A stretch of 63,021 nt of DNA, the filler included, from Nemertoderma westbladi (taxonomy: Eukaryota > Animalia > Xenacoelomorpha): the NCBI GenBank assembly GCA_032718475.1. It is 3 parts of 3 records of this genome, joined end to end, with 100 filler letters (N's around TTAATTAATTAA, not from the genome) between each part and the next. Parts side by side here need not be neighbours in the genome. Positions count along the whole stretch, not along the records: positions 27,060 to 47,818 come from JAUCBJ010003336.1; 2 more parts are not named here. One strand, 5' to 3'. Numbering within the stretch: the stretch's first letter is position 1; each line of letters opens with the position of its first letter. The notes under the pieces were generated by a model. It did not search any database and was not told the origin of the DNA. It worked only from the letters and a program-made list of their open reading frames with translations. Shown here in pieces: positions 28,171-59,035 of this stretch. Position numbers and translations under genes: made by a program.

Positions 28171-28537
28171 CAGGATTTGGAAGTCACAGAGAATTAATCG
28201 GAAACGCGGTTAAAATTTTTAGTTTTGACGTTTAATGAAAATTAATTAATATTTATTAATATTTGGCGAAACCGTCAAGACCGTCATACAGGAAAACAGC
28301 GATAACTCGAGAACTAAAAGAGGTTTCGCTAAGCGGTTTTCAAATTTGAAATACCCATTAAATTCTGCTATAGCTATAGATTAAATAAAAAACGGACATT
28401 TGACATTTCGATTTCGACCAGGGGGGGGGGGGGGGGGGGGGGGGGGGTGTAGTACCGGTACTCCCCCTTAAATCTTTTTCTTTGGAAGGATTTAAAAAAT
28501 TTTCTATTTCAAAATAAAAAATATATTAAAATAATAA

Positions 28538-28966
28538 TTAGTTAGTTAGATAGTTAGTTAGTTAGATAGTTAGTTAGTTAGTTAGATAGTTAGTTAGATA
28601 GTTAGTTAGATAGTTAGTTAGTTAGATAGTTAGTTAGTTAGATAGTTAGATAGTTTAGTTAGTTAGTTAGATAGTTAGTTAGATAGTTAGTTAGTTAGAT
28701 AGTTAGTTAGATAGTTAGTGAGATAGTTAGTTAGTTAGATTGTTAGTTAGTTAGATAGTTAGTTAGCTAGATAGTTAGTTAGTTCGATAGTTAGTTAGAT
28801 AGTTAGTTAGTTAGTTAGTTAGATAGTTAGTTAGATAGTTAGTTAGTTAGATAGTTAGTTAGTTAGATAGTTAGTTAGATAGTTAGTTAGATAGTTAGTT
28901 AGTTAGATAGTTAGATAGTTAGTTAGATAGTTAGTTAGATAGTTAGTTAGTTAGATAGTTAGTTAG

Positions 28967-28998
<32 letters not shown>

Positions 28999-29347
28999 AT
29001 AGTTAGTTAGATAGTTAGTTAGATAGTTAGTTAGTTAGATAGTTAGATTAGATAGTTAGTTAGATAGTTAGATAGTTAGTTAGTTAGATAGTTAGATAGT
29101 TAGTTAGATAGTTAGTTAGATAGTTAGTTAGTTAGATAGTTAGTTAGTAGATAGTTAGTTAGTATAGTTAGTTAGATAGTTAGTTAGTTAGTTAGTTAGA
29201 TAGTTAGTTAGATAGTTAGTTAGTTAGATAGTTAGTTAGTTAGATAGTTAGTTAGATAGTTAGTTAGATAGTTAGATAGTTAGTTAGATAGTTAGTTAGA
29301 TAGTTAGTTAGATAGTTAGTTAGTTAGATAGTTAGATAGTTAGTTAG

Positions 29348-29391
<44 letters not shown>

Positions 29392-29863
29392 ATAGTTAGT
29401 TAGATAGTTAGTTAGTTAGATAGTTAGTTAGTTAGATAGTTAGTTAGATAGTTAGTTAGATAGTTAGTTAGTTAGATAGTTAGATAGTTAGTTAGATAGT
29501 TAGTTAGATAGTTAGTTAGTTAGTTAGATAGTTAGTTAGCTAGATAGTTAGTTAGATAGTTAGTTAGATAGTTAGTTAGTTAGATAGTGTTAGTTAGATA
29601 GTTAGTTAGATAGTTAGTTAGATAGTTAGTTAGATAGTTAGTTAGATAGTTAGTTAGTTAGATAGATAGTTAGTTAGATAGTTAGTTAGATAGTTAGTTA
29701 GTTAGATAGTTAGTTAGATAGTTAGTTAGATAGTTAGTTAGATAGTATTAGTTAGATAGTTAGTTAGATAGTTAGTTAGATAGTTAGTTAGTTAGATAGT
29801 TAGTTAGTAGTTAGTTAGTTAGATAGTTAGTTAGTTAGTTAGATAGTTGGTTAGTTAGTTAGT

Positions 29864-29902
<39 letters not shown>

Positions 29903-31230
29903 ATAGTTAGTTAGTTAGATAGTTAGTTAGTTAGAGAGTTAGTTAGTTAGATAGTTAGTTAGATAGTTAGTTAGTTAGATAGTTAGTTAGTTAGATAGTT
30001 AGTTAGATAGTAGTTAGATAGTTAGTCTAGATAGTTAGTTAGATAGTTAGTTAGTTAGATAGTTAGTTAGTTAGTAGATAGTTAGTTAGTTAGTTAGTTA
30101 GATAGTTAGTTAGTATAGTTAGTTAGATAGTTAGTTAGATAGTTAGTTAGATAGTTAGTTAGATAGTTAGTTAGTTAGTAGTTAGATAGTTAGTTAGATA
30201 GTTAGTTAGTTAGATAGTTAGTTAGATAGTTAGTTAGTTAGATAGATAGTTAGTTAGATAGTTAGTTAGATAGTTAGTTAGTTAGATAGTTAGTTAGATA
30301 GTTAGTTAGATAGTTAGTTAGATAGTTATTTAGTTATATAGTTAGTATAGTTAGTTAGATAGTTAGTTAGTTAGATAGTTAGTTAGATAGTTAGTTAGTT
30401 AGATAGTTAGTTAGTTAGTTAGATAGTTAGTTGTAGTTAGTTAGTTAGATAGTTAGTTAGTTAGTGAGTTAGATAGTTAGTTAGATAGTTAGTTAGATAG
30501 TTAGTTAGATAGTTAGTTAGTTAGATAGATAGTTAGTTAGATAGTTAGTTAGATAGTTAGTTAGTTAGATAGTTAGTTAGATAGTTAGTTAGATAGTTAG
30601 TTAGTTAGATAGTTAGTTAGATAGTTAGTTAGATAGTTAGTTAGTTAGATAGTTAGTTAGATAGTTGTTAGTTAGTTAGTATAGTTAGTTAGTTAGTTAG
30701 TTAGTAGATAGTTAGTTAGTTAGTTAGTTAGTTAGATAGTTAGTTAGTTAGATAGTTAGTTAGTTAGATAGTTAGTTAGTTAGATTAGTTAGTTAGATAG
30801 TTAGTTAGATAGTTAGTTAGTTAGATAGTTAGTTAGTTAGTTAGATAGTTAGTTAGATAGATAGTTAGTTAGATAGTTAGTTAGTTAGATAGTTAGTTTG
30901 ATAGTAGTAGATAGTTAGTTAGATAGTTAGTTAGATAGTTAGTTAGTTAGATAGTTAGTTAGATAGCTAGTTAGTTAGATAGTTAGTTAGATAGTTAGTT
31001 AGATAGTTAGTTAGTTAGATAGTTAGTTAGCTAGATAGTTAGTTAGTTCGATAGTTAGTTAGATAGTTAGTTAGTTAGTTAGTTAGATATTTAGTTAGAT
31101 AGTTAGTTAGTTAGATAGTTAGTTAGTTAGATAGTTAGTTAGATAGTTAGTTAGATAGTTAGTTAGTTAGATAGTTAGATAGTTAGTTAGATAGTTAGTT
31201 AGATAGTTAGTTAGTTAGATAGTTAGTTAG

Positions 31231-31262
<32 letters not shown>

Positions 31263-32123
31263 ATAGTTAGTTAGATATTTAGTTAGATAGTTAGTTAGTT
31301 AGATAGTTAGTTAGTTAGATAGTTAGTTAGATAGTTAGTTAGATAGTTAGTTAGTTAGATAGTTAGATAGTTAGTTAGATAGTTAGTTAGATAGTTAGTT
31401 AGTTAGATAGTTAGTTAGCTAGATAGTTAGTTAGTTCGATAGTTAGTTAGATAGTTAGTTAGTTAGTTAGTTAGATATTTAGTTAGATAGTTAGTTAGTT
31501 AGATAGTTAGTTAGTTAGATAGTTAGTTAGATAGTTAGTTAGATAGTTAGTTAGTTAGATAGTTAGATAGTTAGTTAGATAGTTAGTTAGATAGTTAGTT
31601 AGTTAGATAGTTAGATAGTTAGTTAGATAGTTAGTTAGTTAGTTAGTTAGTTAGATAGTTAGTTAGTTAGATATTTAGTTAGATAGTTAGTTAGTTAGAT
31701 AGTTAGTTAGTTAGATAGTTAGTTAGATAGTTAGTTAGATAGTTAGTTAGTTAGATAGTTAGATAGTTAGTTAGATAGTTAGTTAGATAGTTAGTTAGTT
31801 AGTTAGATAGTTAGTTAGCTAGATAGTTAGTTAGTTCGATAGTTAGTTAGATAGTTAGTTAGTTAGTTAGTTAGATATTTAGTTAGATAGTTAGTTAGTT
31901 AGATAGTTAGTTAGTTAGATAGTTAGTTAGATAGTTAGTTAGACAGTTAGTTAGTTAGATAGTTAGTTAGATAGTTAGTTAGTTAGATAGATAGTTAGTT
32001 AGATAGTTAGTTAGATAGTTAGTTAGTTAGATAGTTAGTTAGATAGTTAGTTAGATAGTTAGTTAGATAGTTATTTAGTTAGATAGTTAGTTAAATAGTT
32101 AGTTAGATAGTTAGTTAGTTAGT

Positions 32124-32154
<31 letters not shown>

Positions 32155-33950
32155 ATAGTTAGTTAGTTAGATAGTTAGTTAGTTAGATAGTTAGTTAGTT
32201 AGAGAGTTAGTTAGTTAGATAGTTAGTTAGATAGTTAGTTAGATAGTTAGTTAGTTAGATAGTTAGTTAGTTAGATAGTTAGTTAGATAGTAGTTAGATA
32301 GTTAGTTAGCTAGATAGTTAGTTAGATAGTTAGTTAGTTAGATAGTTAGTTAGTTAGATAGTTAGTTAGATAGTTAGTTAGTTAGTTAGTTAGATAGTTA
32401 GTTAGATAGTTAGTTAGTTAGTTAGTTAGATAGTTAGTTAGATAGTTAGATAGTTAGTTAGATAGTTAGTTAGTTAGTGAGTTAGATAGTTAGTTAGATA
32501 GTTAGTTAGTTAGATAGTTAGTTAGATAGTTAGTTAGTTAGATAGTTAGTTAGATAGTTAGATAGTTAGTTAGATAGATAGTTAGTTAGATAGTTAGTTA
32601 GATAGTTAGTTAGATAGTTAGTTAGATAGTTAGTTAGTTAGATAGTTAGTTAGATAGTTAGTTAGATAGTTAGTTAGTTAGATAGTTAGTTAGATAGTTA
32701 GTTAGATAGTTAGTTTGATAGTTAGTTAGTTAGATAGTTAGTTAGATAGTTAGTTAGTTAGTTAGTTAGATAGTTAGTTAGTTAGATAGTTAGTTAGTTA
32801 GATAGTTAGTTAGATAGTTAGATAGTTAGTTAGATAGTTAGTTATATAGTTAGTTAGTTAGATAGTTAGTTAGATAGTTAGTTATTTAGATAGTTAGTTA
32901 GATAGTTAGTTAGATAGTTAGTTAGTTAGATAGTTAGTTAGATAGTTAGTTAGTTAGATAGTTAGTTAGTTAGATAGTTAGTTAGTTAGATAGTTAGTTA
33001 GATAGTTAGTTAGATAGTTAGTTAGATAGTTAGTTAGTTAGATAGTTAGTTAGTTAGATAGTTAGTTAGATAGTTAGTTAGCTAGATAGTTAGTTAGTTA
33101 GATAGTTAGTTAGATAGTTAGTTAGTTAGATAGTTAGTTAGTTAGATAGTTAGTTAGTTAGATAGTTAGTTAGCTAGATAGTTAGTTAGATACTTAGTTA
33201 GATAGTTAGTTAGTTAGTTAGATAGTTAGTTAGTTAGATAGTTAGTTATATAGTTAGTTAGTTAGATAGTTAGTTAGTTAGACAGTTAGTTAGATAGTTA
33301 GTTAGATAGTTAGTTAGATAGTTAGATAGTTAGTTAGTTAGATAGTTAGTTAGATAGTTAGTTAGATAGTTAGTTAGATAGTTAGTTAGATAGTTAGTTA
33401 GCTAGATAGTTAGTTAGATAGTTAGTTAGATAGTTAGTTAGTTAGATAGTTAGTTAGTTAGATAGTTAGTTAGATAGTTAGTTAGTTAGATAGTTAGTTA
33501 GATAGTTAGTTAGCTAGATAGTTAGTTAGATAGTTAGTTAGTTAGATAGTTAGTTATATAGTTAGTTTGTTAGTTAGTTAGATAGTTAGATAGTTAGTTA
33601 GATAGTTAGTTAGATAGTTAGTTAGTTAGATAGTTAGTTAGTTAGATAGTTAGTTATATAGTTAGTTTGTTAGTTAGTTAGATAGTTAGATAGTTAGTTA
33701 GATAGTTAGTTAGATAGTTAGTTAGTTAGATAGTTAGTTAGTTAGATAGTTAGTTAGATAGTTAGTTAGCTAGATAGTTAGTTAGATAGTTAGTTAGTTA
33801 GATAGTTAGTTATATAGTTAGTTTGTTAGTTAGTTAGATAGTTAGATAGTTAGTTAGATAGTTAGTTAGATAGTTAGTTAGATAGTTAGTTAGATCGTTA
33901 GTTAGATAGTTAGTTAGATAGTTAGCTAGTTAGATAGTTAGTTAGTTAGT
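28538..33950. repeat. 5.4-kb compound tetranucleotide array (GTTA)n/(GATA)n in a GALK2 intron
   Basis: Continuous TTAG/ATAG units with rare variants; its right end lies ~20 bp from the GALK2 exon 4 donor. Confidence 0.98.
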
Positions 33951-36424: not shown

Positions 36425-37368
36425 GATCTTTCTCACTTTCTTTCCTGTCCACCCTTCTGCTTACAGGCTTATACCGGTACTGCAGTACCGGTACGCGGTA
36501 GGCCTACAAAAAATAATCCTTGAGCTGTATAGACCAGACCTACTGACCTACGAAATGGAAATGGAATGGAACAGTTTATATTTACTTCTAAGTAAAAAAA
36601 CGCACCAACATGCACAACACAATAAGACCAAATCATCATTTTAACATTCACTAAGTGGCTGATAGCGGTCTTCGTAACTAATTAACTAAGACTCATACTG
36701 TAGTTTAATATTGAAATACATATAGGCCGACAGTAGTTAAGAATAGTATACGAGTATAGTACATGTACAGTATATAGTCCATGGGCCAGCCAGCATAGGG
36801 GATACTTTTTGGTAACCACCCGGAACTTATATTTTTGGGAAGACCTCGCTTCTGGCCATTCATTTTGATATGATAACAAATCTGAATCGGTAGCTGACTT
36901 GGTGTTATCACCGGTTGTCATGGAAATGGTAAAACAACAAACATGATGTAGTATTCTAATAACTCAATATAAATTCATCGCATCTTTTGAAAAAGATAGC
37001 TACTGGTCTAACAATTCTAAATGTGACATAAAATTCTGGAATATAATTATTGTTACCATGGGAATGCTGCTAAATGAAAACTGACATGTTTTAGAAAAAT
37101 AGCTACCATTCTAGAACAATACCATTATTTTAAAAACAAATTACCACATTTTAATGAATATTAGTTTTGGAAAATTTTGGTATACTGAGAGCTAAACCTG
37201 TTTTGTTATAACGGTGATATATGGTTCCAAAGATATACCCATGTTTGAAATATTTTTATTTTTCATAACTTTAATCTCATTCCACTCTGTTTCAAAATAA
37301 TGACTTTAACAAATATTTATTTCAATCAAAAACAATCAGATGTGACTACAAATCACTTTAAAATGACA

Positions 37369-38609
37369 CTACTACTACTACTAGGATCGGCATGCTGCAT
37401 TGCAGCTGCATTTTTAAGAATGCTGTGCCGGCTTGTCAACAAAATTGCACCGCCATAACTCCCTATCACCCATGACATTTGCTAGATCATCCGCATCTTC
37501 AAGGCCAGTGTCCTTTAAGATGCGTCTCAAGAAAGTCATGGGCTGTCCACCATGCTTATTCACTCCATGAGGCTGCCAAAGTACAAGATTATGCACTGGC
37601 TGGTCCTCACGGCGAAAGCAATGTCCTGCAAAGCGGAGGCGATTTTGTTCTAGTGTCAAGCTTGGGGGAACCAATGAGACACCTCCAATGTTATATAGTG
37701 TCTGGTTGGAGATGTGTGCATTGTACTTGACACAATGTACCCGGCGTAGCATTCTTGTGAATGTGCCATCCAGAGATTTGGTGTCCTCAGCAGTTAGAGC
37801 CCAGCATGGACTCCCGTAGAGGAGTACTGGAACTACTGCTGCTCTAAATAATCGGACCTTAAGTTTCCGATTAATTCTAGGTGACTTCCAAATCCTGGAA
37901 AGCCTATTCAAGGCTGCCCATGCCTTTCCCTTACGTATTCGAAGGTCCTCACCTGACCTCCGGATCCATGATCCCAGGTAACAGAAGTCGTCCACATGCT
38001 CAAGCATACCATCCTCTGAGCTTAAGCTCATCCGATCAGAGACTTGCTGACGACTTTCAAAGTTAACTGTCAGAATTTTGGTCTTTCTGGAGTTAATAAA
38101 AAGACCAACACTAGAAGCAGCATGTTCTAATGAGCTGAGGAGCCGTTGAGCTCCCTCTAATGATTCTGAGAGTACTCCTAAGTCATCAGCAAAGTCTAGA
38201 TCAGTTAGGTACTTGGCAGGATTTCCTCGACTTCTGGAGCCAGTAGGTGGAGTTATCATCACCCCATCATCATTATGATGATCTAAGGACATGCGTAGAA
38301 CATAGTCAACCACAATAATGAACAAGAATGGTGCAAGTGTGTCTCCTTGGAGGACGCCCCATAACACTTCAAATGGTTCTGTGTCACCGTCAACAGTAGA
38401 CACAAATGTTGTCGAACCATCGTATACTGATCTGATTGCTGCAATAATTTCATCAGGAATCCCATATAATGAAAGTATGCTGAACATACGTGAGCGAGAG
38501 ACTGAATCAAAGGCCTTGAAGAAGTCAACAAAGATAACAGCCAGATGCCTGTCTTTCTTTTTTGATAACTCTTCAATTATCCTTCTAAGTGCCAAAATGG
38601 GCTCCATGG
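37369..38609 (-). mobile_element. 5'-truncated RTE-clade LINE with open RT frame, (TAG)n tail and 12-bp TSD
   Basis: ORF 37414-38607 (397 aa: FVDFFKAFDSV, GVLQGD, DFADD, FCYLGS); TSD TTTAAAATGACA at 37357-37368 and 38610-38621; empty site visible in the opposite transposon arm (~41631-41642). Confidence 0.95.
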
Positions 38610-38999
38610 TTTAAAATGACAAGTGACATCTAAATGGAATTTCAGACAACACTCCTTCACAGGTTACCATGACTACCACACAGATGCAATTGAAGAAGAC
38701 TCAGATATGACACAAATAAATGACTTGACACCTACCACAAAAGAGAGGTTAGTTCTTTCAGTATATTTACTTCAATTTATATATTTATCATACAGTAATT
38801 GTTCCTAGATGATTTCTGCAAATATGATTCCTTCGATAATGACATTTTTGAATACTAAATCCTCTTTATATAATAATAAATACATAATTATGTATGTACG
38901 TATTCTTAATTGTATGCGATGATGTCATCCGAGCAAACAGAGAATTCTTAGTCGAGTAGGTAATGTATGTGATACAATTACTGCTGTATTAGAAATCAC

Positions 39000-39330
39000 C
39001 TTCATCATCTGAGGTGTCAAGTGCATCAGTTCATTCCAATTCCGCCTCCTTCCATTTGGTGCATTACTTGAATTTGTACAACTCAATGCAATGAAGTTTA
39101 ATTTGTAGGCAGATACGTTCGTGGTTTACATGACGTAGTAAAATTTCAATGCCGCAGAGAGAGAGAGAGGATTGATGATGGAGCTGGAAGAACATACATC
39201 CAATTAGGTATTATCATATCCTCCTCATCTAACAGACAGACCTACAGTATAATGGGAGAAGGTACATTGATGATGGATACTAAACTTTTTTCCAAATATA
39301 CGCTTGGTAGTTTGGCTTTGGATATATACG
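39000..39330 (-). pseudogene. Transposase C-terminal remnant (Academ-like), inverted copy
   Basis: Minus strand, across frameshifts: NYQAYIWKK/SLVSIINVPSP...LLDEEDMIIPNWMYVLPAP...CLQIKLHCIEL; homologous to 39870-40110. Confidence 0.7.
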
Positions 39331-39757
39331 TGTATAAACAATACTTACAAGGTGGCAGCAAAGGTTGACTCGATTTCTCCACTTTTTGAGATTAAAAGAC
39401 GATACTGAAGCACGTAAGAATAATATAGACATCAGTGCAGAGGCAGGTTTCACTGAAAGGGATGGTGAGGGGGGGGGGGGGTTATCTAATAGCAAACGTC
39501 AAAGACTAGATCAAGTATGTGACATTCATATTCGAGATGATAATGAGGGTGTCGGCAATAAATGGACACAAATCAATGCCATCATGACCTTCAACCAACT
39601 CAAATACATTACAAGGGATGAAAACGATGTCCTAAAAATGCCAGGTTTATCAAAAGTGTGGATCTCTAAGTAGAATAACGCATTGTAACATGAACACTAT
39701 ATCAGATAATCTTGGACCTGACTTATGCATAATAATTATTGCTTTACATGAATATCA

Positions 39758-40081
39758 GAAGTTAATGACGTGAACGAGCTTCGGTATCGTCTTTTCTGCT
39801 CAAAACATGGAGAAATTGAGTCAACCTTGCTGCCACCTTGTAAATATTGTTTAAAGAGAGACACCTATCCCGAGCCAACTACCAATCGTATATAAGCTTA
39901 GTACCCATCATCAATGTATCTTCTCCCATAGGTCTGGGATGGCTGTTAGATGAGGAGGATATGGTAATACCTGGTTGGATGTATGTTCTACCAGCTCCAT
40001 AATATATCTGCCTGTATCTGCCTACAAAACAAACATCAACATCATTGCATTGAGTTGTGCAAATTCAAGTCATGTACCAAC
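39758..40081 (+). pseudogene. Transposase C-terminal remnant (Academ-like, Cys-rich tail)
   Basis: EVNDVNELRYRLFCSKHGEIESTLLPPCKYCLK/RHLSRANYQSYISLVPIINVSSPIGLGW...GWMYVLPAP*...CIELCKFKSCTN, with frameshift and stop. Confidence 0.7.
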
Positions 40082-40460
40082 AGGAAGGAAGCGAAATTTG
40101 AATAAACTGAAGCTCTTGACGTGATTTTTGACTAACATATTTGCACTACTTGTTTTATTCGTACCCCAGGTGACACTTTAAAAAATACCAAAAAATTTCT
40201 ATAATCGCTTTCAGCATCCAAAAAAACCGCTATATATCGCAAATAAATTAATTTTAGTGAATTATGAAAACTATTGAAAATCTTAGTACGAAAGTACTGG
40301 AGATGGGTGCCATAAAGGGAGCACAGCACGAAAACTATAACATGACCATGTAAATGGCGTTTGCTCTGTTGGATAACCCATTAAATTTTAGGAAAAGTCA
40401 TGAAATCTCGATTTTCCAAACAAACCTTACTCAAAGATACAGATTAATTACAAAGTTATA

Positions 40461-41324
40461 CCGGGCGCGTATTCCCAATCCTTACACTACTAGGAACACC
40501 TCTTGCATTAACACCTAATGAGTTATTATTTGATTGGACGTTGAAATCATGGAAGGAATGGAAAGAGGGGGTCGAACTAGTGTAAGAGTTTTATAAAGTG
40601 CTTCAAACAAAGCAAGATAAATAAAATAAAATAAAATAAAATAAAATAATAAATAATCCAAATAAAATAAACTCTTAAAACCTCTAGATGTCTAGATGGC
40701 GCGCTAGTGCAGTTCGATGCACACGAATAGCAGACGGACTATTCATAAGCAATTACTATACTGTACAGTACTATAATAGGCCTGCTGCATTGAAACTGCA
40801 CATTGAGATGCTATGCCAGTTTGGCAAAAGTATTTGCCACAACCATGCAATCCACAATTGGCAAGCCAAATGCCGCGTACATTAAGAATTCTATACCGGC
40901 TTATCAACAAAGTTGCACCGCCACAATTCCCTATCCCCCATGACTTTCGTGAGATTAGCTGCATCTTAAGAAAGTCATGGGCTGTCCATCATGCTTATTT
41001 ATTTTCTCTATGGGGCTGCCAAAGCACAATATTGTGCGCAGTGTGGTCCTTATGTGTGGGGGTAGCTCATGCAGCCCTGTATAAACCATAACCCAATGTT
41101 CTACTGCCTAGAATAATATCAAATGTTAAGTCTACTCATCTAATACTGTTGGTGTAATAACCCTTACATGATTTCACCCAATTTCTCCATTCCTTACAGC
41201 GTTTGGAACACTTTCTACTGTACCTGCAAACTGAGTATAAAACTCTTACACTAGTTCGACCCCTAACTCCATTCCTTACATGATTTTTTCCTACAAGTGT
41301 AAGGTTTGGGAATACGCCCCCCGG
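40461..41324. mobile_element. Nested MITE-like element containing an old RTE 3' fragment
   Basis: CCGGGCGCGTATTCCCAATCCTTACAC...GGTCGAACTAGTGTAAGAGTTTTATA inverted at 41237-41324; ~40883-41050 resembles the RTE 3' end (AGAAAGTCATGGGCTGTCCA). Confidence 0.65.
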
Positions 41325-42155
41325 CCCAAGTAGGATTAAGTATTTAGGGGGATTTAGTTTGTATTTTGAGGATTTAGTATTCAAAAATGTCATTATCGAA
41401 GGAATCATCTTCCCCATCCTCTTCATCCATCTTCATCATCCTCTAGGAACAATTACTGTATGATAAATATATAAATTGAAGTGAATATACTGAAAGAACT
41501 AACCTCTCTTTTGTGGTAGGTGTCAAGTCATTTGTTTGTGTCATATCTGAGTCATCTTCAATTGCATCTGTAGTGGTAGTCATGGTAACCTGTGAAGGAG
41601 TGTTGTCTGAAATTCCACTTAGATGTCACTTGTCATTTTAAAGTGATTTGTAGTCACATCTGATTGTTTTTTATTGACATAAATATTTGTTATAAAGTCA
41701 TTATTTTGAAACAGAGTGGAAAGAGATTAAATTGATGAAAAATAAAAATATTTCAAACATGGGTATATCTTTGGAACCATAAGATGATAATTGATGTTAA
41801 CGACATACTGACTAACAGGGGGGTTTGGTATGTATATATTAAATTAAGTTAAAGGAAGAACAGGAGTCTTACACCCCCAATAAAAATATAGAATCAGGAC
41901 ATTTAGCCCAAAATATTTCTCGACCCCTAGGGTCATCGAAGAACAACAAACACACAAACACAAAACAAATATAAATACATGCTAAACATACAGGTATGTG
42001 TCGCAACCCTAACCCTAAGCCTACCCGCCATGCACTAAATGATACCGTTAATAACTGCACAATAGCTAAGCCTATATTCTATAAGAAAATATATGACAAT
42101 TTTGTCGCCGTGAAAGGGGTATGCCTGAGGCAAAAATAATTAATTTGTGAAAAAT

Positions 42156-42252
42156 ATGGTTGCGTTTCAGTGTCTTGGACCAGTACGCGCTAATCCTCGA
42201 CACCTCGTCAGCTGGACAGGGAATTAGCTAAGCCTATCTATAATGCAACAAT
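42156..42252 (-). ncRNA. Degenerate type III hammerhead ribozyme-like motif, copy 1
   Basis: GUUGCAUU-AUAGAUAGG-loop-CCUGUCCAG-CUGACGA-GGUGUC-GA-GGAUUAG-CGCGUA-CUGGUCC-AA-GACACU-GAAA-CGCAAC: both core boxes, fully paired 6+7-bp stem II, imperfect stems I and III. Confidence 0.6.
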
Positions 42253-42832
42253 GACCTAAACTAATCGCACCATCAACTCTGTTACCACCTAGCCCAAAAC
42301 AGAAGTCAGACCACAGAACACAGGAACCCTATAGGCCTATGGTAAGTAAATATGTTACCAATGGGAAACTGGTGGAATGCTAGGGCACACACACAGTACA
42401 AAATTTAAATAAGATTTTATGATTTGCAGTAATGTCGGAATTGTGCTCCACTTTCATAAGATGATAATTGATGTTAACGACATACTGACTAACAGGGGGG
42501 TTTGGTATGTATATATTAAATTAAGTTAAAGGAAGAACAGGAGTCTTACACCCCCAATAAAAATATAGAATCAGGACATTTAGCCCAAAATATTTCTCGA
42601 CCCCTAGGGTCATCGAAGAACAACAAACACACAAACACAAAACAAATATAAATACATGCTAAACATACAGGTATGTGTCGCAACCCTAACCCTAAGCCTA
42701 CCCGCCATGCACTAAATGATACCGTTAATAACTGCACAATAGCTAAGCCTATATTCTATAAGAAAATATATGACAATTTTGTCGCCGTGAAAGGGGTATG
42801 CCTGAGGCAAAAATAATTAATTTGTGAAAAAT

Positions 42833-42929
42833 ATGGTTGCGTTTCAGTGTCTTGGACCAGTACGCGCTAATCCTCGACACCTCGTCAGCTGGACAGGGAA
42901 TTAGCTAAGCCTATCTATAATGCACCAAT
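42833..42929 (-). ncRNA. Degenerate type III hammerhead ribozyme-like motif, copy 2
   Basis: Same motif 677 bp away (CUGACGA at 42888-42882), with one further change in stem III. Confidence 0.55.
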
Positions 42930-44582
42930 GACCTAAACTAATCGCACCATCAACTCTGTTACCACCTAGCCCAAAACAGAAGTCAGACCACAGAACACAG
43001 GAACCCTATAGGCCTATGGTAAGTAAATATGTTACCAATGGGAAACTGGTGGAATGCTAGGACACACACACAGTACAAAATTTAAATAAGATTTTATGAT
43101 TTGCAGTAATGTCGGAATTTTGCTCCACTTTCATAAGAACCATATATCACCGTTATAACAAAACAGGATTAGCTCTCAGTATACCAAAATTTTCCAAAAC
43201 TAATATTCAATAAAATGTGGTAATTTGTTTTTAAAATAATGGTATTGTTCTAGAATGGTAGCTATTTTTCTAAAACAGGTCAGTTTTCATTTATCAGCGT
43301 TCCCATAGTAACAATAATTATATTCCAGAATTTGATGTCACATTTAGAATTAGTAGACCAGTAGCTATATTTTTCAAAAGATGCGATGAATTTATATTGA
43401 GTTATTAGAATACTACATCATGTTTGTTGTTTTACCATTTCCATGACAACCGGTGATAACACCAAGTCAGCTACCGATTCAGATTTGTTATCATATCAAA
43501 ATGAATGGCCAGAAGCTAGGTCTTCCCAAAAATATAAGTTCCGGATGGTTACCAAAAAGTATCCCCAATGCTGGCTGGCCCATGGACTAATGCTACAGTT
43601 CTATCCCAGTATCCACGATATAAAAACAAATCTAATATTATTAGTAGATATGTACTGTAAGTATATGCGATATACAATATAAAATAAGTATGTAGGATGA
43701 TGATTTTAAAATACATAAAATAAATTAAAATAAGTATAATAATTATTAAGAGCACACTTAATAATTATTAAGAGCGCACTAGGTAATTCTTGAATTGATT
43801 GGTTGGACTGATTTGGCGGGAAGTTCAACCCTGCAAACCACATCTGAAGTAAAAACATTTGGTGATTGCTTGGTTTATGCTCAAAAACGTTTGTTGCTTG
43901 CTTAGTGCTTTTACAGTCTAAATAGTGTAATTTTGCTATGTTATTTAAATGTTATTCTAGCAAATATTTCCAACCTTGAATTGCTACATATAAACATTTT
44001 TCAAACATTTTGACATAGCAACCATGTCATAAAATTAAATAACCCTCCAAAATTTCAAACAAACTGCCAAACAGTCTGATTATATTCTTTGGTTAGCGGT
44101 TACTGGGTTAGGACTAGTCATTACACTGCTCTTTTACTGCAAAACAGCAGCAACTGCCAAATGATCTACCAGTACTACCTGCTGAGATGGCCTGTCTGTC
44201 TGTGGCCCTGTGGGTAGGCAACTGGGCAAGGCAGCAAGAATTAACTTAACTGAACTGCCTTTACTTTAAGCCTTATACAAATAAATAGGAGTTAATGCGA
44301 CTGTAATTTCCCAGGTACGTAGCCCATGACGTCCACGAAAGAAATTGAACGTCGGTTCATATTTGGTATTCTTTCCTGCAAATCTGAAATCTATGAAATA
44401 TCGTAATTTATCAAATTGAGACGTTCACATTAGGTAATTTAATGTCCTAACTTTTTACAACATTGAATATGAACCAAAACAAATTTATTTTTATTTTTTT
44501 GTGCCTAAATACCTACGTTGTTTGAATGTTTATGAACGTTCAAACATAATTTACCTTATTAGGCATCAAGGCATGTCAATAA

Positions 44583-48290: not shown

Positions 48291-51200
48291 TTAATACCCC
48301 AGTTCTGTGAAGCGCTGGGTTGATGTAATGTAGATTTCTAGTGCCTCTGAAATAGCTCTGAGTATGTCCAGGTCCTGTCCTTGCGGTCCATAAAGTAAGT
48401 TGTGTAGAGTATAGTTGATGTTAAGGCTGGAAAGTACGGTAGTCAGTGCTATCCTGTGGGAGTCGTGCAGAGTGCATTCCATTAAGTAGTGGTAGGTGTC
48501 CTCACGTTGGTGTCCACAAGCGCAACTGGAGTCTGTGGCTATGTGGTTACGGTACATGTCATATTTTAGTACGCTGCAGTTGCGACGTAGTCGCCCAACT
48601 AGCCCATTGATAGCAACAGATCCTAACATGAAATATGGGTTTAATTTATTAACTTTATATCTGCCCTCCGTCAGTAAGATTTTCTTAAATATTTTTAGCG
48701 TTTCTGACTCAGTTACCTCATATGGAAGATCATTCCATAGAGAAACAGTTGAGCTTACAAACGAATTCTTTAGACATTCTGTGCGTGTTATCGGTAGTCT
48801 GTATTTATTCGTAGGTCTCAAATTATAAGGGTTGGCTTGATCAATACGCGGTGGAATGATTTCAGTTAGGTGATGTGGTAGGTGTCCTTTAGATCCCTTG
48901 TAAAAAATACTCAGTTTAATTAAGTCGCGGCGGTCCTGTAGTGTTTGTAAGCCCGATTCAGCGTACAGGTCCTCAGTGCGGCACGATATTGTAAGTTTAC
49001 ATATAATTCTAATGGCCTCTTTATTTATTAGTTCAAGTCTTTCTTTTAGATATTGTGTACAACCATCCCATACGGGACAAGCATATTCGAGAATAGGCCG
49101 CACAAAGGAGGTGTATAGCACTGAAAGAGCCCTTTTGCTAAGCTTGTATTTAGCAGCTCGCAGAAGGTTTAGTCTAGTCTTTGCTTTGTCAATAATGTTA
49201 TTAATGTGGGAGTTCCACTTTAGGTTATTTTGAAGTGTCACACCAAGGTGCTTGTGGTGTTCGACTTCAGCGATGGGAGTATCATGTAGAAGTAGCTGTG
49301 TGTATCCTGTACGTGGTTCTTGTCGGTGCGTAATTGTCATAGCTTCAGTTTTTAGTGGGTTGTAATCTACTGACCACATATCCCCCCATTCGCCAATTCG
49401 TAGTAAGTCATCATTAAGTAGCCGGCAAGCTACTTGTGGGTCAGTAACCTCAATGTACAACGAGGTATCGTCGGCAAAAAGTCTAGTTGGGTTAACCGTG
49501 ATATCAATAAGGTCGTTTATAAATATTAAGAAGAGTAGGGGACCAAGAACTGATCCTTGGGGGACCCCTGCAGTGATCGGTAGCCAAGGCGACATGTGGC
49601 CTTTGATCATAACGCATTGGCTATTGCCACTGAGGTATGATAAAAGCCACTCAAGTAAAGGGCCGCCAATTCCCATTCTACGGGCCTTAGTTATAAGGCC
49701 TGCATGGCTAATTTTGTCGAAGGCCTTAGTAATGTCAAGGAAAGCAATCTTGACTTCCTTTCCATTATCTAAGGCTGTAGATAATTCGTCAAAAAGTGTT
49801 ATGAGTTGGTAAGTAGCAGAATCACCAGGTAAAAAGCCTGACTGATTTTTATTTATTTTTTTAATTACGTGGTGCAGTATATATTTACTGACAATCCTTT
49901 CGAATAATTTTCCTAAAGCGCTTGTTAGAGAAATAGGCCTATAATTACAGCAGTATATGTTGGGGCCCTTTTTATAAACAGGTGTGACACATCTTTTTTT
50001 CCAATTTGTGGGATGGTGTTTTGATTTCAGGACGAGATTAAATAAATTTTTTAACTTTTCGATTATGACTGGACCTCCCATTTTGAGCATCCTGTTGGAG
50101 ATTACATCAACTGGACAACTTGCCTTAGCGGGGTTAATTGTTTTTAAGGCTTCCTTTACATCGTTAGATGTGATAGTAATTTCATTTAATATTTCAGAGA
50201 CGTCATCTAAGTTCTGGGCATCATGATTTTGGCCGACATTGCTATTAGTTGGGGCGGTTGCCTGATCAGCAAAATAGATATTAAAGAGTTCTGCCTTGTC
50301 TGCTGATGAACTGGCATGGATATTTTTATAATTTACTGGGGGTATTTCGTTAATTTTATTAGTTTGTAAAATTTTTTTGGTGAGTGACCACCATTGTTTT
50401 GTACTATGTTGGGTTGATTCCACTTTTTCTGATAGAGAATTAAAGTATTCCCTTTTTGCTTGTCTACAGGAGGATATATAAGAGTTCCTACTCATTCGGA
50501 AGTTGGCCCAGGCTACTTCGGAATTTGACCTCTTGGCGATATTATGATATTTTTGTTTTTCTTTTAGTAGTCGTCTGGTGTCACTATCAAACCAGGGCTT
50601 GTCATTGGGGCGAATGGTGACCACCCTGTTCGGTATGTGCTTTGAAGCAATTTTCATAAAATTGTTTGTCCAAGTATCAATAATTCCGTCAATGTCGTCT
50701 GGTCTAATGTCGTTAACTTCTTCCGGTATCTTAGCTAGATCAGTCTGAGTAAGCTCCCGTCGGAAGGATGTATTATTAGCGTGGCTGAAATCCCACACCC
50801 GTCGTTTATATGCTGGATCCTGGATCATTGTCAGCTTATATTTAAAATGAACTACCATATGGTCGCTGCTTCCATAAGGCGCCTCATGAAAGACATCATA
50901 GACTGAGCCGGGAGTAGTTGTCATCACTGGGCTTAATAGAGTTTTAGTTGTCCTTGTCACCCGAGTTGGTTCGGTTATGTATTGCGTGAGTCCTTGTCTC
51001 TGTATCAAAAATCGTAGGTTTATTGACGATTGGTGTATAAGGTAATCTTCGTTTAAGTCGCCGAGTAGTAAAATGTGTTGGTATTCAAGTGCCCGGGCCT
51101 CATTCAACATTGCATTAAAACTCTCCCAGTAAAACGTTACATTTTCAGGCCTGTAGCCTACTCCTATTAAAAATTTTTTGTTGTTAGCCAGACATTCAAC

Positions 51201-51746
51201 CCATAGTACCTCCAACCGGGGGTCAATGTTTTCTAGTGTAATTTTGCGTTCGCATTTTATAAAATTGGAAATATATAGGCATACACCGCCTCCATGTCTG
51301 TTTCTATCATTACGAAGAGGATTTTGAAAACCAACTATTTTCAAATTGTCATCATTTATACTGGTTTCAAGCCAAGTCTCATTTATAGCCAGTATATCAA
51401 CCTCGCTAGAGAGATTTGGCTTTATAAACTCTTTATTTAAAATTAAGCTTCTAATATTTGTCTGAGCAACTCTAATTGGACGAATAAATTCATTTGGGCC
51501 TGGGTTAGGTTGGATATCCCCAGCAATAATTAACAACAGCCGTAATGCCATATGTGGTATTGTATTTTCATTTATAAATATAAATATAAAAATAGCAAAA
51601 TTATTATGTTGGCAATTTTGTTTGTATTTTCTGTGCATAAAGATCATGGAATTCTTCCAATAGAAATAAAGATTCTTAACCATACATACATAATCATCTA
51701 CACACACACACACACGCACCCATAATACATACTGGGCCCAGAACAT
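48291..51746 (-). mobile_element. Intact CR1/L2-group LINE ORF2: 2A-like peptide, APE endonuclease, RT, C-terminal zinc finger
   Basis: 1151-aa uninterrupted ORF: AGDIQPNPGP; NIRSL, DILAINETWL, GGGV, GDLN, SDH (APE); NYRPISLTS, QSGF, FLDITKAFD, GVPQGSVLGPLLF, LFADD, HLGV (RT); CACG..ED..HYLMEC; real start may be Met at 51551. Confidence 0.93.
51495..51551 (-). other. 2A-like (StopGo) peptide variant MALRLLLIIAGDIQPNPGP
   Basis: Matches LLxxxGD(V/I)ExNPGP except Q for E; lies directly before the APE domain. Confidence 0.7.
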
Positions 51747-52094
51747 GAACCACCACCAGGATAGTGCCCTCCACCAGCCGTACCCGGTAAGCCTAATGTC
51801 AGTTCCTTACCTAGATTGAAAATAGGTGATATGAAATGAAGATGCGATCATGACTGAATATAAAGTATTATATTATATTATTTTGGTTACTACATTAATT
51901 AGTACCGGTACCCTTTTATAAACAATATTTGTATTACATGTTACAAGTATTATGAGGATGAATTATGTCAATATGAATACAGTATATACCGATAAGACAA
52001 GTATTTGTGAATTACTTAGCTCCAGCTGTAGTTCCCTCCAGGTTTAGTTTATTCGACTAATAAGTAACCATGACCGTAAATTGTCTCAAGTGAC

Positions 52095-55000
52095 CTACCC
52101 AAATTCGATTAGCAGCTGCTCATTCGTCGGCTGAGTACATAAAGCGATCGGTTCCAGGTCTGGCTCTGGAGCTGTCTCACCCGCTTCCAAAGTAGCTCGG
52201 CCGCTCGAATCCGTCCCAGGATGGCCGACCGGATCCGCCACACCTCGGCCGCTCGAATTCGCCCCAGCTCGGCCGCTCGAATCCGTCCCAGGATGGCCGA
52301 CCGAATCCGCCACAACTCGGCCGCTCGAATTCGAATTCGCCCCAACTCGGCCGCTCGAATCTCCCCCAGCTCGGCCGCTGCCGCATCCTTGTTCCATCCC
52401 ATCGCCTCTAGGTCTTCTGCATCCAAGCCATTATCCTCCGCCCACTCTCTTGGTGTTGCTTCCACTCCTAGCTCATCTACCGGCGGTATTTTTCTGGAAC
52501 TATCCTCTATCCTTCCGCCACACACCACTATGCGTGGTTCTAGATCCATACCCAACTCCTGGTATCCTTCCCCAGGCCGCTTCTTACATGGGACCTCCCC
52601 CTCGCATGTCTCTGGTTTATCCTCTACCTCCTCAACAGTGCCTGGCACCATGCACCCTGAAGTCTCGGACACACTGAATGGAATATTGGTTTTGATTGGG
52701 CCGCTTAGCGTCCACCCGAATGTTGTTAGAATTGCCATCGGGTCACGCTGTCTGTCTTCGCCGAAGACCGTCTGTAATCTATCGTGGGCCGTCGGGCAAT
52801 CCATTCCCACTATGATGGATACCTTCCTGACGTCCACCTCCGGTATCGAGAAATCGATGTTGTCCAGGAATCTGTATTGCTCGACCTCAATGTTGGTTGG
52901 TCGCCTGGCGTTTATGTTGATCGATTCTATCACCTGGATGGGGTCGATGGTCGCCCCATAGTCACATCCTGGTGCTATCGCTGATATCTCGCACCGTCCC
53001 GTCCTCATCTCCAGGACCTCATCTTTGCTGGAGATGGTTATTACCGCCATCCTACTTGGCCTCGTCTTTAGCCCTATCTCCTCGGCCACCGAATTCTCCA
53101 CCAACGTGAAGGCTGCTCCGCTGTCGACCAGCATCAGCGTAGTAACTGATCGACCACCTTCTCCTATCACCCTCACTGGCACTACCCCGAGTAGTACCGT
53201 TCCCCTTTTCTTCGCCCCTATGGTGCTTGTCGCCATTGTTTGACCTTTGCCTTGACCGAATCTTACTGGTGTCTCCTTACACTCTTCAACCTTGTGTCCC
53301 CCTATCACACATCTGTGACAAATTCCATTCTTATCCGCATAGGCTTTCCGATCTTGTTCGGGTAACGCCTGACAATGCTTACAGTCCATGGTCTTATGGG
53401 TTCTGTCTTTATGCAATTGACATTTGTATTCTGGGTTGTAACATTCCCTATATAACCCTACACGTATTGCGCGTAGGTTTATGTCTACCGGTTTAGTGTT
53501 TTGGTTATTTGAGTTTGGCCTACTGGGTGTGTTGGGGTTATATTTGTTCGTGTTGTTATTTTATCCCTGTTCGTGCCACAGTCTGGCCCCACTTCCAGCT
53601 ATCTGTGGACTTGCAGTCCCCTGTGTCGCCGTGTATGTTAGGGATTGTCTTAATTTTGGCAACGCATTTGCCACGTTATGCTCCGGTTTTGGCCTGTTGT
53701 ATTCGGCCCTCGGTGCCTTCCCCAGACTATCCTCGCTGTAGACTGGGTCCGTGATTAACTCTGCTTCGTAGTTGAGGAAGTTCGACATTTCCTCTAGGCC
53801 CGGTTCCGCACCTTTCTTCTCCCGGGTGGAGAAGGCGATCTTTCTCCATTTATTGCGCAGCCAGATTGGCAGTGCCTCGCTATCGTGGTGATATTGTTAG
53901 ATGCGTTGAGTTCGTATGACGCATCTAGAGTTTTCAACACATTTAACGCCTTCTCGACCTTGTTCGCGAAGGTCTTTATGCTAACAGGGTTGTCCTGTAG
54001 GCCACCCGTTGTTATACCCCTCAGGGTTTGCCGGATGATCTTGGCAGGGTGTCCGTATTCCCTGTCTAGGGCCCGCCATGCAGTCATGAAGCCACCCTCG
54101 ATGCCCTGATACTGCCTCACGATGTCGTACGCTGGGCCTCCTGTGTATACCTGTAGATATTTTAGGCACTCCGCCTGCGTCAGGTTTTTAGTTAATATCT
54201 CGTTGCTGTACATGCGCTGGAATTGCAGGTATTCTTCCGGCCTACTTCCGTCGAATTTAAATGGCTCTACGGGTGGTAGCCCGATTCTGGTCTTGAGCGC
54301 ATCGATTAGTGTAGCCATTCCCATCGCCTGTGCTTCCAATGCATTCGAAGGATGCGGTACAGATTCTCCCGTTGGGTGCGGTCCGCCTGTCCGGCCTGTT
54401 GACTTTCTTTGCGTCGGATATACCATCGGGGGTAACAGCCCCCTCCATATTTCCATGTCGCAAGATCTGTTCTCGTCCAGGGGGTTCGATGTTCTTATTC
54501 CTGTTTGAGTGTATTGTTGATACTGTAATGGGGGAATGTCACCCTGTCCCCCCCCCCCCCCACCGGTGGTATATTTGGTACTGGGGTTAATGTTAATATA
54601 TTGGGGCCCATACACCTATCCGCAATAACTCTCCCCTCCCCTGGATATATTTTATGTCCCTGCATATTATAGTCATATTGCTGTGCTGGTACTGGTATAG
54701 GCCTATCCACTTCTTGCCTACCTACCGGTATATACGCCGCGACTTCTGGATCTAATCCCATTGTTCGCACTACCCTATCACCTACACTATCTCTCCCAGC
54801 ATGGCCTATAGTATGTGCAGTAAGGCCTACAGTATGTCCTGCAGTCTGTATGTGTCCTTCTGGACCGAAGTTTAACCTTCTCGAATAATCCAAGAAGTCC
54901 TCCCCGCGACTACCGTACCCTCGATCGGCGGCTATATCCCGTCGGGAAGTTTCTCTTCGATCCCCTCTCCTGTTCTCGTCCTCGTACCGGTACGTCCTGT

Positions 55001-57813
55001 ACCCCTCTTCTGGCGTATAATATACCTTGCCAGGCTGCGTTTCTCCGGGGCGACGGCAATCTCCCGGAGTTCGACCCCACTGACTCTCCAACTCCATCTC
55101 TACTACCGACAGTTCGCTATCCGTCCTCTCTCTCCGGTCGCTCGTAGCGACGCTTCTTCTATTCTCTCCTCTTATTCTCTCTTCAGTGTAGCGTCCCCGT
55201 TCATGAGATCTCTCATCGACCTCCCGGTTAAACTCCACTGTTCTTCTTCCCTCTTCTGACTGGGCTCGATGTCTCGTCGCTCGCCCGCTCACGACGCAAA
55301 CCTCCCTCTCTCTAGCCGGTTGGACGCCGCTGGGGATATTTGTAATACCCTACTATTCTCCGCCGCCGGGTGCTGCGGTTCACCTAACTCGCCCCGCGCA
55401 TTGTCCGCCGACGCCTGCGGGACATTTTCTGCCCCCCCCCCCTCTCGCCACTATTCTCTCGTCGTGGGGTGCCCGTAGCCCCCCCCCCCCCCCCCCACTC
55501 GCAACCGATCACTCCACTATCTCTTACTTCGCTTCTACGTCCCTCCCTGGTCGACGCACTATCTCTACTGCGGCTGGGTCTATTCACCCCCGCCCCTACC
55601 TCTACCACTGCGTGGCCTGGCAGGCTCCCGCCGGGTTGCCTCACCCCCGCTGCTCCCTGCCTAACTACATGGCCTTGCAGGCTCCCTTCGGGGTCTCTCA
55701 CCCCCGCTACTCCCTGCGTACTAACTACGTGGCCTTGCAGGCTCTCGCTGGCCGGACCACCCGTGTCCCCTACATTAGTATTAATAGCCCCGTTATCAAT
55801 ATTATTTTCTATATTATTTAAATTATTTGGATTATGTTCTGAATTCGGATTGTTATTTAAATTATTTTGTATATTTAGGTTTGAATCGGGAATATTTTGC
55901 TCGTTTGAATTAAAATTATTATTTAGATTATTTTGCGTATTTAAATTTAAATTATTTGAATTACTTTGTATATTCGAATCTAGATTATTATTTGAATTAT
56001 TTTCTATATTTAAATTAGGGTTATTATTTTGAATATTTATGTTAGAATTATTTGGATTTAACTCGATTAAATTTGGACTTTGGTCGGCCAACTCTGCCTC
56101 CCTCGCCTCCTGCTCTCTACGCTCACTCTCTACTTTTGCCTCTCGCTCTCTACGCTCATTCTCTACTTTTGTCTCTCGCTCTCTACACTTATTATCCACC
56201 TTCGCCTCCCGTTCCTCGCGCTATCTAAAGTTTCTCGCGACCCTCTCAGCCCTCTCTTTATTCTCCCTCGCTAACTCTCTCTCTTTCTCTAACAACGCAG
56301 TTCCCTCACACAACTGCCTCTCTAATTCTTTCTGGTCTAGCGCCACCATGTCTACTGTCTAGTTGACACGCCAGATCTATCTCTAACATCCTTCTTGCTT
56401 TCGCGGAGGATGTAGTGGACTTATCGGTCACGACGGACTCCCGTCACCTCTCTGTCCTACTAACTTTCCCCCGCTTTCTGGGGTTCTCGCTAACCGATGA
56501 GACCGAATCCTTGGGGTTAACCTCGGGTTTGCCCTCATGCGGATCTGCCCAACCCACTAACTTAATTTCTCTGGCATCCACTAAATACGGCCCCACGTAC
56601 ACTATTTCAGGCTCCATAACCCCGGATCGCCACAGTTCGAATAGTTCAGTGGTGACCCCCCTCGCTCTCTCACTCGCCAATTCTCCCTGTCCGAAATGAA
56701 CTAGGTATCGGAAATGTTTATTCGACTCACCTAGTCGCTGGCTCAACTTCTCCTGATTTACCTTCTCTCCCTCTTTGGCCTCCTTCAATAGTTTCTTGAT
56801 GGCCCGTCGAAGCCAATCGCTGGTCCCGACGTCCTCTTCGCCGACATCTCCTCCTCCTCTCCTGGTTCGGCGTCGTACCGGCGGCCCCACTGTCGCCGTT
56901 CCGGTGGGCCGTCCGTCTCCCTCGGCCTGTGGCTGGCCGGCGACTTCGGTACTCCGGCCGCCGTCGTGCGTCGACTCGTCCCTTCCTCGTGGTAGACGGC
57001 CGCCCCCCGCTTGGGCTACCGGATCGTCCCTCGTCGGCGAATCCGGCGTTGCAGGTCGATACCATTGCGTCGCGGCCTCACGGATCGTTTGGTTGGTATC
57101 GTCCGGGGTCCGCGGCGGTGTCCTCTCTCCCTCTGACAATCGGGGCTCTCCTGTGCTCATCTCTCTGGCGTCTGGCAGTCACAGTTTGTAGTGGTTGGGG
57201 TAATCCTCACTGTGACGGAATCAAGGGATCCCGACTGGTTAAATTGACTACGCGTCACTGTGGTAGTGAAATAAAATAAGAGTTTGTTGTTATCTCTTTG
57301 ATACTTTGAATGTTAATACTGAATGAATGAATAAAATGAATGAATAATAGCACAATGAAGGTAGCGGATACTGACAGTCTCGATGGGTACCGGTATGTGG
57401 ATATATTGGTGACGGTGAGGATGGTCACCGGTCTGCACTAAAAGCCAATAACTGAATAACTGATTTACAGACCGGTAGTAGGATAATATATATATATATA
57501 ATTAGTCCTATACTACTGTGGCCTCTTAACCTAGTGGATGCTTCCCTCGCCCCTATTGGCTAATAATCTACTTCACGCCTCTCCCATCTCTGGGAGTGTT
57601 TCCCCCCTGCTGTTGGCCCCTGATGGTTGTTTCCTCTCCTGAGGTGATTTGACCTCTAACCTCCCTTTGTGTGGCTTTGGGGTTTGTGTTGTCCCCTGTT
57701 ATTGGTTGTGATACAAGATTGGTTATTGCCAATCTCGTATCTCCAATATTGCTGAAAAGGCGCCACTGTCCTAACTTTGTGAGGGTAATGCGGCGGAATT
57801 GAATCCGCTCACA
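52095..57813 (-). mobile_element. BEL/Pao LTR retrotransposon, 5' half (LTR, long N-terminal region, gag, zinc knuckle, aspartic protease); RT/RNase H/integrase absent
   Basis: LTR starts TGTGAGCGG at 57813; ORF 53794-54615 LPPVEPFKFDG...CLKYLQVYTGGPAYDIV (Pao gag, DUF1759-like); ORF 52109-53416 CHRCVIGGHKVEEC, VLLGVVPVRV, LVDSGAAFTLV, IIVGMD, TTFGWTLSGP; several frameshifts. Confidence 0.85.
57259..57813 (-). repeat. 5' LTR of the left BEL/Pao element
   Basis: TG...CA bounded; homology to 59834-60363 begins exactly at TGTGAGCGGATTCAATTCCGC; inner boundary approximate. Confidence 0.65.
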
Positions 57814-57958
57814 AACGATATGAAAAACGTGTTCGATATACGGAAAGCCCAGAAAATTATGCATCTAATAGGCTTAAAAACGCAAAATTGACCATTTGGG
57901 AACCAGGCCCCTTTTCTCGCATAAGGCCACGCTGATGAGACTGTCTGATTCGAAATAG

Positions 57959-59007: not shown

Positions 59008-59035
59008 AAAAGTTCTTTAAATACTCTGGGATCAA

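Follow-up and report, generated by a model that had tools for sequence, protein, structure and literature searches.

The window analysed here, meaning the whole stretch of 63,021 nucleotides with filler included, comes from Nemertoderma westbladi (assembly GCA_032718475.1) and joins three parts of three records end to end, with 100 filler letters between neighbours; positions 27,060 to 47,818 derive from JAUCBJ010003336.1. Within that part lies a host element with long terminal inverted arms, and one of its arms carries an inserted dimer of a non-coding 677-bp repeat unit. Each unit contains a predicted hammerhead ribozyme on the minus strand. The features of the insertion, including its target-site duplication (TSD), are as follows.

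36775..43589, no strand assigned: host element, a multi-copy repeat with long terminal inverted arms and a nested reverse transcriptase (RT) fragment at 37366-38610
37220..37227, minus: empty target site, opposite arm of the host element
41774..41781, plus: left TSD, GAACCATA, ending in CATA, which is also the sequence at the unit's own junction and the likely priming end
41782..42458, minus: unit 1, 677 bp, non-coding, 38.7% GC, with the RNA sense assigned from the predicted ribozyme
42459..43135, minus: unit 2, 677 bp, three differences from unit 1
43136..43138, minus: start of a third unit, 1-3 nt (one base absent from the target, two common with the TSD)
43137..43144, plus: right TSD, GAACCATA

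Positions 41778-42461 and 42455-43138 align with a period of 677 and only three mismatches (42248, 42385 and 42443), without any spacer, and the two units are 99.6% identical. The longest stop-free frame across the dimer is 69 codons. The 8-bp TSD sequence begins at 41774 and at 43137 on the two flanks, and its reverse complement stands as an empty site at 37220, in the opposite arm of the host element; the arms, at 36775-37368 and 41631-43589, differ by 18 mismatches and 2 gap columns in 596. Contigs from two public sequencing runs, X3 (depth 1070.6) and X1 (depth 45), join 41773 directly to 43137, so the empty allele is independent of the assembly. Because of these contigs and the empty site in the other arm, the insertion is both real and derived. 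With the longest TSD the insert measures 2x677+1; since target and unit have in common CATA at the left end and GA at the right, the TSD can be read as anything from 2 to 8 bp. The target context is CATA within ATATAT, and CATA would match at 3 of the 677 possible entry points into the unit. Unit-unit junctions sit 402 and 276 nt from the predicted ribozyme cut sites. A first-pass annotation had described a spacer-free 677-bp dimer, an 8-bp TSD with an empty site near 37220, a target ending in CATA as the unit does, a right end running 1-3 nt into a third unit, junctions placed away from the ribozyme site, and a minus-strand hammerhead core in each unit. All of this anatomy is confirmed by the data above and by the finding of CUGACGA and GAAA flanking a 6-bp stem II in both units.

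Two details of the unit are recorded here for their own sake. At 42443 and 43120, which are the same unit position, the letter is G in unit 1, T in unit 2 and C in the family, which makes two distinct changes at one site among only three differences. Two telomere-like hexamers (TTAGGG, minus strand) lie within the unit at 42005-42018.

The dimer is an inserted copy of an abundant non-coding repeat that probably behaves as a non-LTR retrozyme (that is, one without long terminal repeats, LTRs), in which each unit carries a predicted pseudoknotted, non-circularly permuted hammerhead of type CSG, not of type I or III. The parts of the ribozyme, all on the minus strand and given for unit 1 except where stated, are these.

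42162..42228: predicted type-CSG hammerhead, unit 1, 67 nt
42228-42221: 5' strand of the stem I/II helix
42215-42212: stem I
42211-42205: CUGACGA
42204-42199: stem II
42196-42189: 3' strand of the stem I/II helix
42188-42185: stem III
42184: H17
42183..42184: predicted cut after GUA, placed by hammerhead numbering (unit 2 site, 42861/42860)
42183-42180: stem I'
42179-42175: linker
42174-42169: stem II'
42169: change private to this locus, turning the stem II closing pair from the family's G-C to G-U
42168-42165: GAAA
42164-42162: stem III'
42839..42905: predicted type-CSG hammerhead, unit 2, identical to that of unit 1

In this arrangement loop II holds the strand with the GUA site. Upstream of the site this strand pairs with the bases that follow GAAA, and downstream of it with those that precede CUGA. 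The blocks run in the order C-S-G, with zero-offset stems I, II and III of 4, 6 and 3+1 bp. Sequence upstream of stem I pairs with the start of loop II to form an 8-bp stem I/II helix (42228-42221 with 42196-42189), and the core elements CUGANGA, GAAA and the UH site are all present. A relaxed scan of the whole window, on both strands and for all six block orders, passes only the CSG reading and a wobble-rich SCG reading, with four matches, two per unit. The SCG candidate lies about 100 nt upstream, at 42318, with a GUU site and a wobble pair, and is retained as a minor alternative. One hundred shuffles of the window returned no match of any block order at stems of 4/5/3. With blocks C and G held fixed, an S block arose in 194 of 200,000 loop shuffles and an S block together with an 8-bp helix in 1 of 200,000, at thresholds taken from the observed motif.

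Part of the 677-bp unit is present in six public runs from four studies, whose contigs were aligned to the locus. The unit is covered at depths of thousands, as against 14-60 for rare contigs, where depth does not equal copy number. Record 12 of run X3 spans 42334-42484 at depth 8285.1, and the neighbouring body contigs have depths of 8265.3 and 9346.2. Because contigs of family depth (X3 record 12 and X5 record 25) run across 42458/42459, this junction must be interior in most family copies; X4 record 17 also crosses it, in a run that may be of RNA and has contigs of depth 3-6, and among the runs with the unit none is listed as RNA. Loose ends, among those listed (20 of 284 and 17 of 59), are mostly recognisable unit variants, with no dominant end and no pile-up at the junction or at the predicted cut site. 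The pattern fits a 677-bp unit closed on itself, as arrays or as dispersed permuted copies. At least five changes are common to both units and nearly absent from the family (42032, 42124, 42169, 42229 and 42261, among the 40 of 88 rows listed); they show no more than prior divergence of the template or the first copy.

Within the 67-nt motif, variation at 1% or more was listed in full (nine rows), and only three positions differ in the family: 42171, where the stem II pair U-A becomes U-G; 42176, a linker base; and 42169. Changes in the stems are one-sided, keep the pair and are confined to stem II, with none at 1% or more in stems I and III. The first-pass annotation had made its case depend on the family keeping its hammerhead; CUGANGA, GAAA and the UH site are free of such change in the four runs. 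At 42169 the family letter accounts for 82832.6 of 82961.2 of depth in X1 and 28796.3 of 28814.1 in X3. By the usual hammerhead rule, a G-U pair closing stem II may lower cleavage relative to the family form, and the copy at this locus may thus cut less well than its family. In one diverged contig (X5 record 26, depth 123.4) blocks S and G are kept, the linker is altered, and both partners of the 42227/42190 pair are changed. Of 25 pieces listed, six are diverged contigs of low depth that cease to match at 42226-42228, where the motif has its 5' edge; some of the six may be one locus seen in two runs.

Some further contigs touch the motif. Contigs of about 2.6 kb and low depth (X1 record 4 and X3 record 13) match the ribozyme alone, at 42151-42228, and are candidates for a longer element with the same motif. 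An X5 contig of depth 124 departs from the unit at 42188, just 5' of block S, and the letters beyond that point resemble an inverted 42232-42250 by eye, which may be compared with the inverted truncated copies of Penelope-like insertions.

The available text of Eckert et al. 2023 (PMC10085705) describes type CSG from two 66-nt soil-metagenome sequences of unknown host, CSG-1 and CSG-2, which cleave in vitro at 0.004 and 0.026 per minute; it reports no CSG in the genomes of known organisms and remarks on the very short link between the stem I/II helix and stem III. The 677-bp unit shares with them the block order and the 8-bp stem I/II helix. It differs in belonging to an animal repeat family, in C7, in the GUA site, in a 4-bp stem I placed after a 5-nt spacer, and in a 3-bp stem III. 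Two RNAMotif descriptors for CSG given there demand U7 and a stem III of at least 4 bp, and would miss the present motif. An exact search with the 23-nt core found nothing in metagenome contigs. A degenerate pattern, built from the features common to CSG-1/2 and the 677-bp family, matched 0 of 11 and 0 of 120 viral loci and 1 of 120 metagenome loci, with 33 of 64 parts scanned and CSG-1/2 themselves not recovered. The one metagenome match (L020, positions 902-976, plus strand) has the CSG layout in unrelated sequence, with stems of 3/5/7, an 11-bp stem I/II helix and an outer closing stem of 9 bp. It is single copy in a T-rich contig of 1074 bp, in which no tandem repeat was seen and two short open reading frames (ORFs) gave no Pfam match. 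A prokaryotic match, 1 of 120 loci (L134), has stems of 3/4/4 and a helix of merely 5 bp, and was taken as chance. A literature search, outside which lay most subscription papers and bioRxiv supplements, found no CSG hammerhead reported in animals.

Naiad elements, a group of Penelope-like elements, offer a second set of comparisons. According to the accessible portion of Craig et al. 2021 (PMC8557442), Naiads are without canonical hammerheads, some have cores that fit no descriptor, and in eight of them hammerhead halves lie 35-50 nt apart; the half-core spacing in the 677-bp unit is 36 nt. Read by eye, the consensus 3' untranslated regions (UTRs) of Naiad_Ppac, Naiad_Parc, Naiad-1_Nbra, Naiad-2_Nbra, Naiad-3_Nbra and Naiad_Hcon in the supplement show the CSG layout. 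This covers six of the eight nematode entries (Naiad_Hpol and Naiad_Asuum lie outside it), with names assigned from headers and file order. Two of the six are marked HHR_half_core in the source and one HHR_core. All six motifs lie on the sense strand near the 3' end, with differing stem sequences and intact pairing. Across L020 and the Naiads, then, stem sequences differ while pairing is kept, and neither is homologous to the 677-bp unit.

Two other readings of the ribozyme were weighed. The first-pass annotation had leaned towards a type III topology, which would use the upstream strand 42252-42233. In unit 1 five bases there do pair with the 3' side of stem III, next to a 6-bp hairpin. That strand is, however, mismatched by the core: it has an A-C mismatch beside the core, U at position 17 and a mismatched first pair of stem I, and it fails the scan at 3/4/3 bp. 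It is also variable: the stem III base at 42248 is private to unit 1, the family varies at 42237, 42243, 42245 and 42251, and at 42243, which would serve as U16.1, A accounts for 7-53% of depth. No conserved S block was found 5' of block C, the strand in loop II fits CSG instead, and type III is accordingly regarded as extremely improbable. For type I, no CGS fit was found within 120 nt and Rfam was negative: the Rfam check proposed in the first-pass annotation returned 0 hammerheads at gathering threshold at the locus and, at E<10, one unrelated match at chance level. Another reading, which we consider unlikely, is a nested dimer, in which the core takes the S block of the neighbouring unit, or of another molecule, to make a type I or III fold with a loop of about 650 nt. 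A neighbouring S block would match the core equally well by sequence, the zero-nucleotide link between the stem I/II helix and stem III is hard to fit within one molecule, and amphibian retrozyme hammerheads cleave better as dimers, as the available text of PMC7229834 has it. Yet CSG-1/2 transcripts of 77-78 nt do cleave, with the same short link (PMC10085705, in the portion available), and single CSG motifs occur in L020 and in the Naiad 3' UTRs.

Several points weigh against the CSG retrozyme we propose. CSG-1/2 have longer stems I and III, of 6 bp and of 4 bp plus A-U, where the unit has 4 bp and 3 bp plus A-U, and in the unit the stem I/II helix adjoins stem III without a linker. The minimum-energy fold, in which pseudoknots are disallowed, locks the S block in an extended stem II, and a fold of the whole unit is no more stable than those of shuffled sequences (z 0.24), which leaves a viroid-like compact fold unsupported. 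Low variation in the motif is by itself weak evidence because the sequence on either side of it shows little variation in the major subfamilies too. The two-sided change at 42227/42190 comes from one contig, with 8 of its 15 changed letters displayed. The contigs do not separate dispersed permuted copies from long tandem arrays, and no Penelope-like coding element or ORF was seen in the window.

The 677-bp family may also be set beside known retrozymes. Like non-LTR retrozymes as described in the accessible text of PMC7229834 and of Li, Clavereau and Pollet 2026 (10.64898/2026.07.22.740005), it is made of non-coding head-to-tail tandem units with one predicted hammerhead each, in forms from dimer to multimer, with a unit length inside the published range. 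It is multi-copy, has a GC content below 50%, lacks LTRs, a primer-binding site (PBS) and a polypurine tract (PPT), and is flanked by a duplication that exceeds 4 bp when read at its full 8 bp, the minimum reading being 2. Non-LTR retrozymes usually occur as dimers and multimers (PMC7229834). The 677-bp family departs from them in the ribozyme, since non-LTR retrozymes are defined by a type I hammerhead and that of the 677-bp unit is predicted to be CSG. Plant LTR retrozymes resemble it in having 600-800 nt between two hammerheads (PMC4918200, PMC7229834 and 10.64898/2026.07.22.740005, as far as the available texts go). Unlike these, the unit has no LTRs with a type III hammerhead, no PBS and no PPT, its GC content is 39% as against more than 55%, and its duplication is not of 4 bp. 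The first-pass annotation had also thought the size unusual for an animal, which does not stand. The first figure given for non-LTR retrozyme units was 150-450 bp (PMC7229834), and the available part of the 2026 preprint gives families of 51-972 bp, averaging 650 bp in ray-finned fish, and ties non-LTR retrozymes to Penelope pLTRs. A size of 677 bp is ordinary because the published animal families span 51-972 bp, and the novelty is the ribozyme, not the unit size.

The anatomy and the family data support a retrozyme-like element apparently inserted by target-primed reverse transcription, as first proposed, although the type III ribozyme and the unusual size that went with this proposal fall away. 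In the mechanism we envisage, read-through transcripts of tandem units would fold so that the GUA strand in loop II pairs with both core flanks and is cut. It would take two such cuts to free one 677-nt monomer, which would make a dimer the smallest copy able to release a full one. A host ligase of the RtcB type, for which ligation has been shown with type I retrozymes (PMC7229834, in the text available), could close the monomer into a circle. A borrowed Penelope-like enzyme, most likely that of a Naiad, would then make staggered nicks in the target, 8 nt apart, and cDNA synthesis would be primed by the exposed 3' end, CATA, annealed inside the RNA. Template on both sides of the priming site would be needed, and hence a circle or a multimer, since the junction lies 402 nt from the cut site. 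The cDNA would stop about where it began and join through a 2-nt microhomology. The two units may have arrived together, from a dimeric template, or one may have been duplicated in place later.

The first-pass annotation had the enzyme going twice round a 677-nt circle. This is possible, but it is not singled out by the data and leaves the stop at 2.00 units unexplained: a stop within 1-7 nt of two whole units has a chance of about 1% (7/677). Such a stop agrees with a single passage round a dimeric circle, and also with a single passage round a monomer whose copy was then duplicated locally. In the latter course, which is a serious possibility though we do not favour it, a monomer (one circle turn plus 1-3 nt) was inserted first and later duplicated in place through the 7-nt terminal repeat CATAAGA. 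Besides the length of the insert, two whole units plus 1-7 nt, it would account for units that share at least five near-private changes yet differ at only three sites; in addition, about ten listed sites separate the host arm from its own family, so the locus has aged. A dimeric template taken from two adjacent units of a diverged source array explains the same facts, however, and multimeric forms are, as noted above, usual among such elements. The choice alters the history of the locus, not the nature of the element. That the second unit is instead an assembly duplication of a monomer insertion seems distinctly unlikely. The near identity of the units and the scaffold gaps nearby are what such an error might leave, and among the pieces listed (27 of 1598) none joins flank to unit or spans the locus; against it, the units differ at three sites, at one of which (42248) only unit 2 agrees with the family, and head-to-tail junctions are real and abundant in three runs. 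Nor do we give much credence to a solo LTR (TG...CA, 672 bp) with TAAGA spacers, or to a satellite captured in break repair, with the ribozyme incidental in either case. The plus strand can be read as TAAGA-TG...CA-TAAGA-TG...CA-TAAGA, and junction depth equals body depth, as in a satellite. The solo-LTR reading was rejected on the empty site, which is without TAAGA, on position 42456, where the A of 'CA' is G in the covering X5 contig, and on the unit, in which no coding or tRNA-like part was found; the staggered duplication with its matching primer end fits nick-primed copying.

For the CSG retrozyme preferred here, a Naiad is the most likely partner enzyme, by analogy. The usual Naiad target is (TA)n, and Naiad_Pmar is listed with CATA duplications, so far as the available part of PMC8557442 goes; the CATA-in-ATATAT target of the dimer is a weak match to these. 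Naiads in the same source are 3.4-4.4 kb long and encode an endonuclease-reverse transcriptase, in contrast to the non-coding 677-bp unit. On balance we lean towards a broader view, in which type CSG would be the ribozyme of animal Penelope-like elements, and so the hammerhead 'missing' from the nematode Naiads at least, and the 677-nt family a Naiad-mobilised retrozyme that makes RNA circles by means of a double-pseudoknot hammerhead and has hundreds or more copies in one animal genome. The two soil-metagenome CSG sequences would, if this is true, be fragments of animal retroelements. More generally, the comparison suggests that animal jumping elements use the CSG form to make RNA circles.

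Previously the CSG permutation amounted to two metagenomic fragments, which showed modest covariation and came with neither a known host nor a known role. With a high-copy animal family it would gain a host kingdom, a job in the processing of retroelement RNA, and many natural variants for work on covariation and structure. The puzzle of the Naiad cores that fit no descriptor becomes testable, with six published sequences showing the CSG layout by eye. Retrozyme surveys use type I descriptors and no Rfam model matches the motif, so a class of animal retrozymes may have escaped notice.

The remainder of the window holds other repeats and a few genes. Within the host element, inner inverted segments pair 38610-38864 with 41368-41642 and 39016-39415 with 39774-40120, and the RT fragment nested in its left arm recurs at 3948-5126. 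The stretch 27060-33950 contains 36 copies of a 31-bp satellite and, adjoining a scaffold gap, 5.4 kb of TAGT/TAGA simple repeat; gaps are written N44-TTAATTAATTAA-N44. A LINE (long interspersed nuclear element) at 48291-51806 (minus) has an open endonuclease-RT frame of 1171 codons. Frames for DUF1759 and an aspartyl protease, which we take to be BEL/Pao-like, lie within 52109-62139, beside a second large inverted-repeat structure at 55893-62139. The window also encodes a plastin, whose best matches are 53-60% identical across deuterostomes, cnidarians and molluscs, as expected of an animal lacking near relatives among the sequences searched. This plastin, at 11827-13743 (minus), and a class I aldolase at 22897-24042 (plus) are each one uninterrupted frame, and may be intronless genes or retrocopies.

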